Positions 28,243-28,698 of a DNA stretch of 64,000 nucleotides are shown here, piece by piece. Below the pieces are notes generated by a model that did no database searches, had not been told where the DNA came from, and was given only the letters and a program-made list of their open reading frames with translations. Each line of letters opens with the position of its first letter. Position 1 is the first letter of the stretch. The DNA comes from a phage, in the sequence record PZ295659.1; one strand, written 5' to 3'. The translations under genes and the position numbers were made by a program.

Positions 28243-28698
28243 TTATTTTAGATCTTCGGCCCAATCTAGTTTTAAGGGTTCTTTGTATTCACGGTCGAGA
28301 ATAACCGGAATAGCTACATCACCACTGAATGATAGTTGGCCAACGTTATATGATAACGTTATATGTGGAGTGTAGTCGTCGAAATCATGAGTAGCACCTA
28401 AAGCTCGTGCATACTGATGACGACATCTAAGATATTCGGAATCAAGAACTAAAACCAGTACAGCGCCGTCGTCAGTTTTCCATACCTCAAAGTGTCCTGA
28501 TTCGGCAACAGAATAACTACCACTAGATGTAGTATATGGTATGTTTACACGTGAATAACAAATTGTTGAATGAAGCTTTTCACGTGGTACTGGATTAGGA
28601 ATTCTTAATTTGCGCTGGAGGTCTTCCAGCGCATCAAGTGTTAATTCCGAAAATTTAGCTGCGACGTAGAGGCCTTGTGAAAAGTCCTCAAATTTCAT
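28243..28698 (-). CDS. 57B: 2H-phosphoesterase-fold protein, gene 57B homolog (Acb1-like anti-CBASS phosphodiesterase)
   Basis: 151 aa with two H-x-T/S motifs (HSTI, HITL) typical of 2H phosphoesterases; located between ipI and 57A as T4 57B. Confidence 0.65.

Follow-up and report, generated by a model that had tools for sequence, protein, structure and literature searches.

Predicted orthologs of acb1 and acb2, the two anti-CBASS genes of T4, in the early region of an RB69-like phage

Introduction

Does the gene at the 57B position of this phage genome encode a nuclease that degrades the cyclic oligonucleotide signals of CBASS, and does the same phage also carry the second anti-CBASS protein known from T4, which sequesters such signals? 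The T4 counterpart of the first gene was identified as Acb1 by Hobbs et al. through activity-guided fractionation for cGAMP cleavage, and the T4 protein, the only one for which this was shown, linearizes 3'3'-cGAMP, cUA, and cA3 (PMC9117128). Its catalytic tetrad is formed by H44/T46/H113/T115, and the H44A/H113A mutant is inactive; the aromatic residues Y12, W74, F107, and W147 make stacking contacts with the bases of the ligand, E141 reads the N6 of adenine, and residues 145-152 constitute a lid above the ligand (PMC9117128). In citing work, Hobbs et al. are credited with the observation that the T4 activity is present early in infection.

The second T4 gene, acb2, is vs.4, and the substitutions Y8A and F82C abolish the function of its product (PMC12657218). 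For the T4 and PaMx33 proteins, a hexameric assembly and a nanomolar binding of 3'3'-cGAMP that is not followed by cleavage have both been shown (PMC10312549, PMC12657218). In PaMx33 Acb2, dinucleotides have a pocket that is formed by Y11 and K26, and cA3 has a separate one, formed by R67 and T74; the latter pair corresponds to D61 and T68 of T4 Acb2, which binds 3'3'-cGAMP with a Kd of ~84 nM and does not bind cA3, even when D61 is replaced by arginine (PMC10312549).

A first-pass annotation of the DNA considered here, made from the letters alone, had proposed a 57B homolog that is Acb1-like by virtue of two H-x-T/S motifs, and had nominated a small ORF as Acb2 on position and size only. Its premises, that T4 57B is Acb1 and that T4 vs.4 is Acb2, agree with the literature (PMC9117128, PMC12657218). 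We have analyzed both loci by profile, structure, and sequence comparison and have weighed the readings that compete with an anti-CBASS function.

Results

Origin of the DNA and Comparison with RB69

By sequence comparison, the stretch of DNA that was analyzed, 64,000 nt in length and hereafter called the window, comes from an RB69-like T-even phage (Mosigvirus, Straboviridae), of whose early-gene region it forms a part. In a megablast search with 24 kb around both loci, the RB69-like phages match at ~96-97% nucleotide identity and ~94-96% query cover, and the lengths at which 57B (456 nt) and vs.4 (267 nt) are annotated in RB69 are equal to those of the window ORFs. The features discussed below are collected in Table 1.

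The correspondence with RB69 is interrupted at several places. RB69ORF156c, a 108-aa ORF located between ipI and 57B in RB69 (L004:12884-13210), is missing from the window at 28166-28242, with the result that ipI follows directly after 57B in a T4-like manner. RB69ORF130c is also missing, and two segments of the window, 15433-16016 and 27243-27568, have no blastn-level alignment to RB69. Two adjoining tRNA genes, tRNA-Arg(TCT) and tRNA-Met(CAT), are found on the minus strand at 26197-26353 and are annotated likewise in RB69, whereas the corresponding locus of T4 contains eight tRNAs. When the whole window was scanned with Rfam at its gathering thresholds, these two tRNAs were the only matches, and none was obtained at the acb1 or acb2 locus.

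Table 1. Position, strand, and identification of the features discussed in the text
Feature	Coordinates	Strand	Description	Evidence
tk.4, macro-domain protein	11138..11635	-		Pfam Macro E=1.7e-6
vs.3-like ORF (RB69ORF117c equivalent)	13013..13228	-	3' of acb2	40% identical to T4 Vs.3, E=9e-12; PHROG 2037; RB69 annotation
acb2 (gene vs.4)	13228..13494	-	88 aa, predicted cyclic-dinucleotide sponge	Pfam, PDB, and T4 homology
vs.5 homolog	13484..13708	-	Upstream of acb2, 11-nt overlap with its start	PHROG 1986 E=7.9e-38; RB69 annotation
ipI, T4-type internal protein I, nuclease-inhibitor family	27878..28165	-	Immediately 3' of acb1	Pfam IPI_T4 E=1.3e-50; PHROG 4363
57B-ipI element	28194..28228	-	TTTACA-17-TACTAT with extended TG, sigma-70/T4-early-like; overlaps a 12-bp hairpin	Consensus match
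acb1 (gene 57B)	28243..28698	-	151 aa, ATG start; predicted 2H-type cyclic-oligonucleotide phosphodiesterase	Pfam, PDB, and T4 homology
Gene 57A, tail-fiber chaperone	28698..28928	-	Upstream of acb1	Pfam GP57 E=6.5e-26

A Full-Length Acb1 Homolog at the 57B Position

The 57B protein of the window matches the Pfam model Acb1 (PF23474) over the full length of the profile (residues 8-149 against positions 1-144 of 144; E=1.3e-58, 197.3 bits for a cut-off of 27), and it matches the solved Acb1 chain PDB 7t26 across residues 9-148 (E=1.1e-58); these matches assign it a predicted 2H phosphoesterase fold. It is separated from RB69 57B by a single residue difference, F70L. The pairwise alignment to T4 57B (NP_049750.1), which is one residue longer at the N-terminus (the T4 protein starts MM), is gap-free, with 129 of 151 residues identical (85%).

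Exactly two H-x-T/S motifs are present in the protein, HSTI at H43 and HITL at H112, as the first-pass annotation had described. As stand-alone evidence for the assignment, such a pair was rejected, because it is too common: at least two of these motifs occur in 7 of the 77 window ORFs of at least 100 aa, and in 2 of the 48 whose length is 100-200 aa. The individual residues are more informative when they are placed on the alignment. Once the published numbering had been verified against T4's own sequence, the catalytic tetrad was found to be kept in the window protein as H43, T45, H112, and T114, and the ligand-contact residues as Y11, W73, F106, and W146, together with the adenine-reading E140, so that all nine of the published catalytic and ligand-contact residues are present. 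The 22 substitutions that distinguish the protein from its T4 counterpart all fall outside the known functional residues. The C-terminal lid reads LDWAEDLK here as against LDWADDLK in T4, and the C-terminus itself is shared. The window protein and T4 Acb1 (PDB 7t26/7t27 being the solved Acb1) thus have in common their family, the tetrad, the four aromatic residues, the glutamate, and a nearly identical lid, and both are encoded between 57A and ipI. The Acb1-like call therefore stands after alignment, with each catalytic histidine and its paired threonine retained.

If the T4 protein and the solved structure are a valid guide, window Acb1 would be a metal-independent 2H phosphoesterase with a cyclic di- or trinucleotide as its ligand: aromatic residues would stack on the bases, E140 would read an adenine, and the C-terminal lid would shut over the ligand. 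With the HxT/HxT tetrad as catalyst, the 2'-OH would then attack the 3'-5' bond, and once 3'3'-cGAMP, cUA, or cA3 had been linearized in this way, the CBASS effector would never be activated.

A Homolog of Acb2 at the vs.4 Position

The small ORF nominated as Acb2 does lie in the vs.3-vs.5 neighborhood, as had been supposed: according to the RB69 annotation, it is situated between the vs.3-like ORF and vs.5. Its identification as Acb2 is now based on homology and goes beyond position and size. The predicted protein aligns with all 58 positions of the Pfam profile Acb2_Tad1_hairpin (PF24729; 1-58/58, E=9.6e-18, 64.6 bits for a cut-off of 27), and residues 3-88 match the solved T4 Vs.4 chain PDB 7uq2 (E=1e-29). 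In BLASTP it is identical to T4 Vs.4 (NP_049728.1) at 56 of 87 positions (64%, E=3e-37), and it is 99% identical to RB69 Vs.4, from which it has a single difference, S18G. The ATG of acb2 is preceded by GAGGAA and lies within a longer, TTG-started reading frame; RB69 vs.4 is the same 267-nt CDS. No NCBIfam model matches either the Acb1 or the Acb2 protein, which is uninformative for both calls.

The cyclic-dinucleotide pocket is kept in window Acb2 as Y9, K24, and F82, the equivalents of PaMx33 Y11/K26 (T4 Y8/K23) and of T4 F82, and the pocket tyrosine and lysine are invariant across five aligned homologs, including the Acb2 of Pseudomonas phage JBD67. The Arg/Thr pair of the cA3 pocket (PaMx33 R67/T74) is absent, as is, consequently, the signature of the broad-spectrum subtype; the window protein has Q61 and Q68 at these positions, where T4 has D61 and T68. 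Since these glutamines stand in place of the Arg/Thr pair, window Acb2 is most likely a sponge for dinucleotides alone, in line with T4 Acb2. In this respect it would differ from the PaMx33/JBD67 Acb2, which binds both di- and trinucleotides (cA3/cAAG), for window Acb2 is predicted not to sequester trinucleotides; the JBD67 protein is ~25% identical to it.

Conservation is unevenly distributed along the protein. In an alignment of the RB69, AlbertHofmann, T4, and JBD67 sequences, the N- and C-terminal thirds, which hold the dinucleotide-pocket residues, are conserved, and the central hairpin varies in both sequence and length. T4 Acb2 has the same length (88 aa), the same hairpin domain, and the same gene neighborhood, and there is near identity between it and the window protein over the N-terminal 36 and the C-terminal 23 residues; residues ~37-65, however, are strongly diverged and include a 1-aa indel, and because of this central divergence the ligand spectrum could differ from that of T4. 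Among the T-even phages, the tip of the hairpin seems to be variable in both length and sequence, the pocket-bearing ends being fixed. The Acb2 of Escherichia phage AlbertHofmann, a closely related Mosigvirus (L006:2957-3202, minus strand), is 81 aa long and 77% identical to that of the window, being 7 aa shorter in the central hairpin. The ORF at the vs.3 position is 99 aa in AlbertHofmann and 71 aa in the window.

As a small helical-hairpin protein modeled on T4 Vs.4, window Acb2 would form a hexamer in which two protomers sequester a cyclic dinucleotide between their N-terminal parts, with Y9 and F82 stacking on the ligand and K24 providing a salt bridge; no cleavage would be involved.

Gene Order, Promoters, and RNA Elements

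The order gene 1, 57A, 57B, ipI is common to the window, RB69, and T4, and so is the order regB, vs.3-like, vs.4, vs.5, vs.6. Both genes belong to series of minus-strand ORFs that are closely packed and overlap one another, an arrangement that is consistent with operon-like expression. The start of acb1 shares TAATG with the stop codon of 57A, a 1-nt overlap where T4 has one of 4 nt, and the two genes are apparently translationally coupled by it. In the same manner, the start of the vs.3-like ORF shares TAATG with the stop codon of acb2.

In a promoter scan, the frequency of sigma-70-like matches was not above that in shuffled sequence, and for this reason no promoter was assigned to acb1 or acb2. 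Between 57B and ipI, directly behind the 57B stop codon, there is, nonetheless, an element that may be a real promoter (Table 1); T4 and RB69 both retain its TTTACA and TACTAT hexamers, and the gene it would most likely serve is ipI. The hairpin that it overlaps has a predicted folding energy of -19.3 kcal/mol (z=-4.06). A hairpin is likewise discernible by eye in T4 after 57B, in another register (TGATGAGGTA...TACCTCATCA). The T4 late-promoter core TATAAATA occurs on the minus strand at 29283-29290, inside gene 1 and upstream of 57A and 57B. The window as a whole contains 15 copies of this core where 8.3 would be expected; 12 of them are located past position 31,000, and 11 of these 12 are on the plus strand.

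The Macro-Domain Protein Tk.4

The first-pass annotation had seen in the macro domain and the internal proteins, taken together with the two anti-CBASS candidates, a multi-layer anti-defense repertoire spread along the early region. As far as their presence is concerned this is correct, since both an IPI protein and the macro-domain protein Tk.4 are encoded in the window (Table 1); but for Tk.4, no anti-defense role was found in the literature on T-even anti-DarTG factors. In the dedicated paper, the factors described are AdfA and the NADAR protein AdfN (30.3), and Tk.4 is not among them. The DarG macrodomain model (NCBIfam NF048014) gives a faint match to Tk.4 (E=2.2e-7) that, at 30.5 bits for a cut-off of 250, is far under the threshold, and on these two grounds we do not propose Tk.4 as an anti-DarT factor. 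The solved structures closest to it are those of macro-domain and ADP-ribose-1''-phosphate phosphatase proteins. It is conceivable that Tk.4 reverses an ADP-ribosylation-based defense, but this is speculation. The synteny with RB69 places the probable true start of tk.4 near 11605.

Distribution and Current Annotation

Both proteins are already known, and their exact sequences are in public databases. That of Acb1 occurs in 142 contigs and is represented in UniRef by the cluster "Anti-CBASS protein Acb1 n=14 Tax=Mosigvirus"; that of Acb2 occurs in 39 contigs, its UniRef name being "Acb2/Tad1 hairpin domain-containing protein." Homologs were detected by tblastn in 1470 phage records for 57B and in 1239 for vs.4. 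The annotation of these homologs in GenBank and RefSeq has lagged behind: those of 57B are called "RNA ligase" in RefSeq and in PHROGs, and those of vs.4 are a "hypothetical protein" in nearly all records.

Discussion

We are highly confident that the window encodes orthologs of both anti-CBASS genes of T4, an Acb1 that would cleave the signals and an Acb2 that would sequester them. The grounds are the same for the two genes, namely homology, conservation of the critical residues, integrity of the reading frames, and synteny, and it is from these that we infer the enzymatic and binding activities. A literature search that combined RB69 with CBASS and Acb1/Acb2 returned no relevant activity data for RB69-type alleles.

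The name under which 57B is most often filed implies a different biology. The label "RNA ligase," given to it by PHROG 755 and by RefSeq for both T4 and RB69, would make it a LigT-like enzyme, either a 2'-5' RNA ligase or a cyclic phosphodiesterase, with RNA ends as its substrate, as in tRNA repair for instance, and not an anti-CBASS nuclease. In favor of this label, the LigT and the Acb1 families have their 2H fold in common as well as the HxT/S motifs, and window Acb1 shares with the LigT/2'-5' RNA ligase family its two motifs and, presumably, the fold; the Pfam model 2_5_RNA_ligase2 (PF13563) even gives a weak match to 57B (E=0.013). That match, however, reaches 15.9 bits for a cut-off of 27 and is restricted to residues 70-131, whereas the Acb1 model accounts for the protein from end to end with a score of 197 bits for a cut-off of 27. 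Moreover, the T4 ortholog came to light precisely as a cGAMP-cleaving enzyme, its substrates being cyclic oligonucleotides where those of the LigT type are RNA ends (PMC9117128), and the stacking residues and lid that it uses are conserved in the window protein. The "RNA ligase" name appears to be a superfamily-level transfer that is older than the Acb1 work, and we consider it very improbable that 57B is an enzyme of RNA ends here. To the idea that one or both of the genes have decayed and are non-functional we give hardly any credence. Natural loss-of-function alleles of acb2 do exist in related phages (PMC12657218), and such a state has been proposed for the acb2 of T2 and of PaMx41; in the window, however, both ORFs are full length, with neither a frameshift nor a premature stop and with all the known required residues kept, and both proteins are identical or nearly so across well over a hundred Mosigvirus genomes.

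The range of ligands bound by Acb2 has to be considered separately from its identity. The RB69-type protein could have a spectrum that differs from that of T4, either because it binds cyclic trinucleotides or because it has lost affinity for particular dinucleotides, 2',3'-c-di-AMP (the decoy of Panoptes) being an example. The poor conservation of residues 37-65 relative to T4, and the 7 aa by which a third allele, that of Bas47, is shorter in this segment, lend some substance to the idea; in addition, binding spectra are known to differ among Acb2 homologs, and Panoptes selects against dinucleotide binding by Acb2 (PMC10312549, PMC12657218). Yet the dinucleotide-pocket residues of window Acb2 are intact, it has neither of the cA3-binding residues, and in T4 the arginine at position 61 conferred no cA3 binding (PMC10312549). 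Furthermore, Bas46 and Bas47, the BASEL collection's two Mosigvirus isolates, continue to be restricted by VnOptSE, although the role of their own Acb2 in this is presumed and the Bas47 allele differs from that of the window. On balance, a spectrum unlike that of T4 is unlikely, and we are equally doubtful of its more specific version, in which the RB69-type Acb2 has less affinity for 2',3'-c-di-AMP and keeps its binding of 3'3'-cGAMP. Were it true, the variable hairpin tip in Mosigvirus and Tequatrovirus would bear witness to an arms race of sponge proteins with the defenses that sense them.

The Panoptes results merit a cautious reading on their own account. AlbertHofmann is Bas47, and it is one of only two Mosigvirus isolates in BASEL (PMC8594841). 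In the Panoptes source data, VnOptSE restricts Bas46 260- to 2000-fold and Bas47 2.5- to 91-fold. The dependence of Panoptes restriction on Acb2 was shown only for T4 and Bas38. That Bas46 and Bas47 are restricted agrees, at best indirectly, with a dinucleotide-binding Acb2 in Mosigvirus; as proof of Mosigvirus Acb2 function we have rejected it, given that limit on the Acb2 dependence and the 77% identity of the Bas47 allele.

The dinucleotide-binding sponge and the signal-degrading nuclease that we favor represent no new biology, for they are a known gene pair in a well-sampled phage genus, and the diverged central segment of Acb2 is the one place where novelty could hide. What the analysis does offer is an annotation: this Mosigvirus phage, in the manner of T4, pairs a predicted signal-degrading nuclease with a predicted signal-sequestering sponge against CBASS. 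The correct naming of the two genes matters for predicting both the host range of such phages on strains that carry CBASS and their sensitivity to systems of the Panoptes type that detect Acb2.
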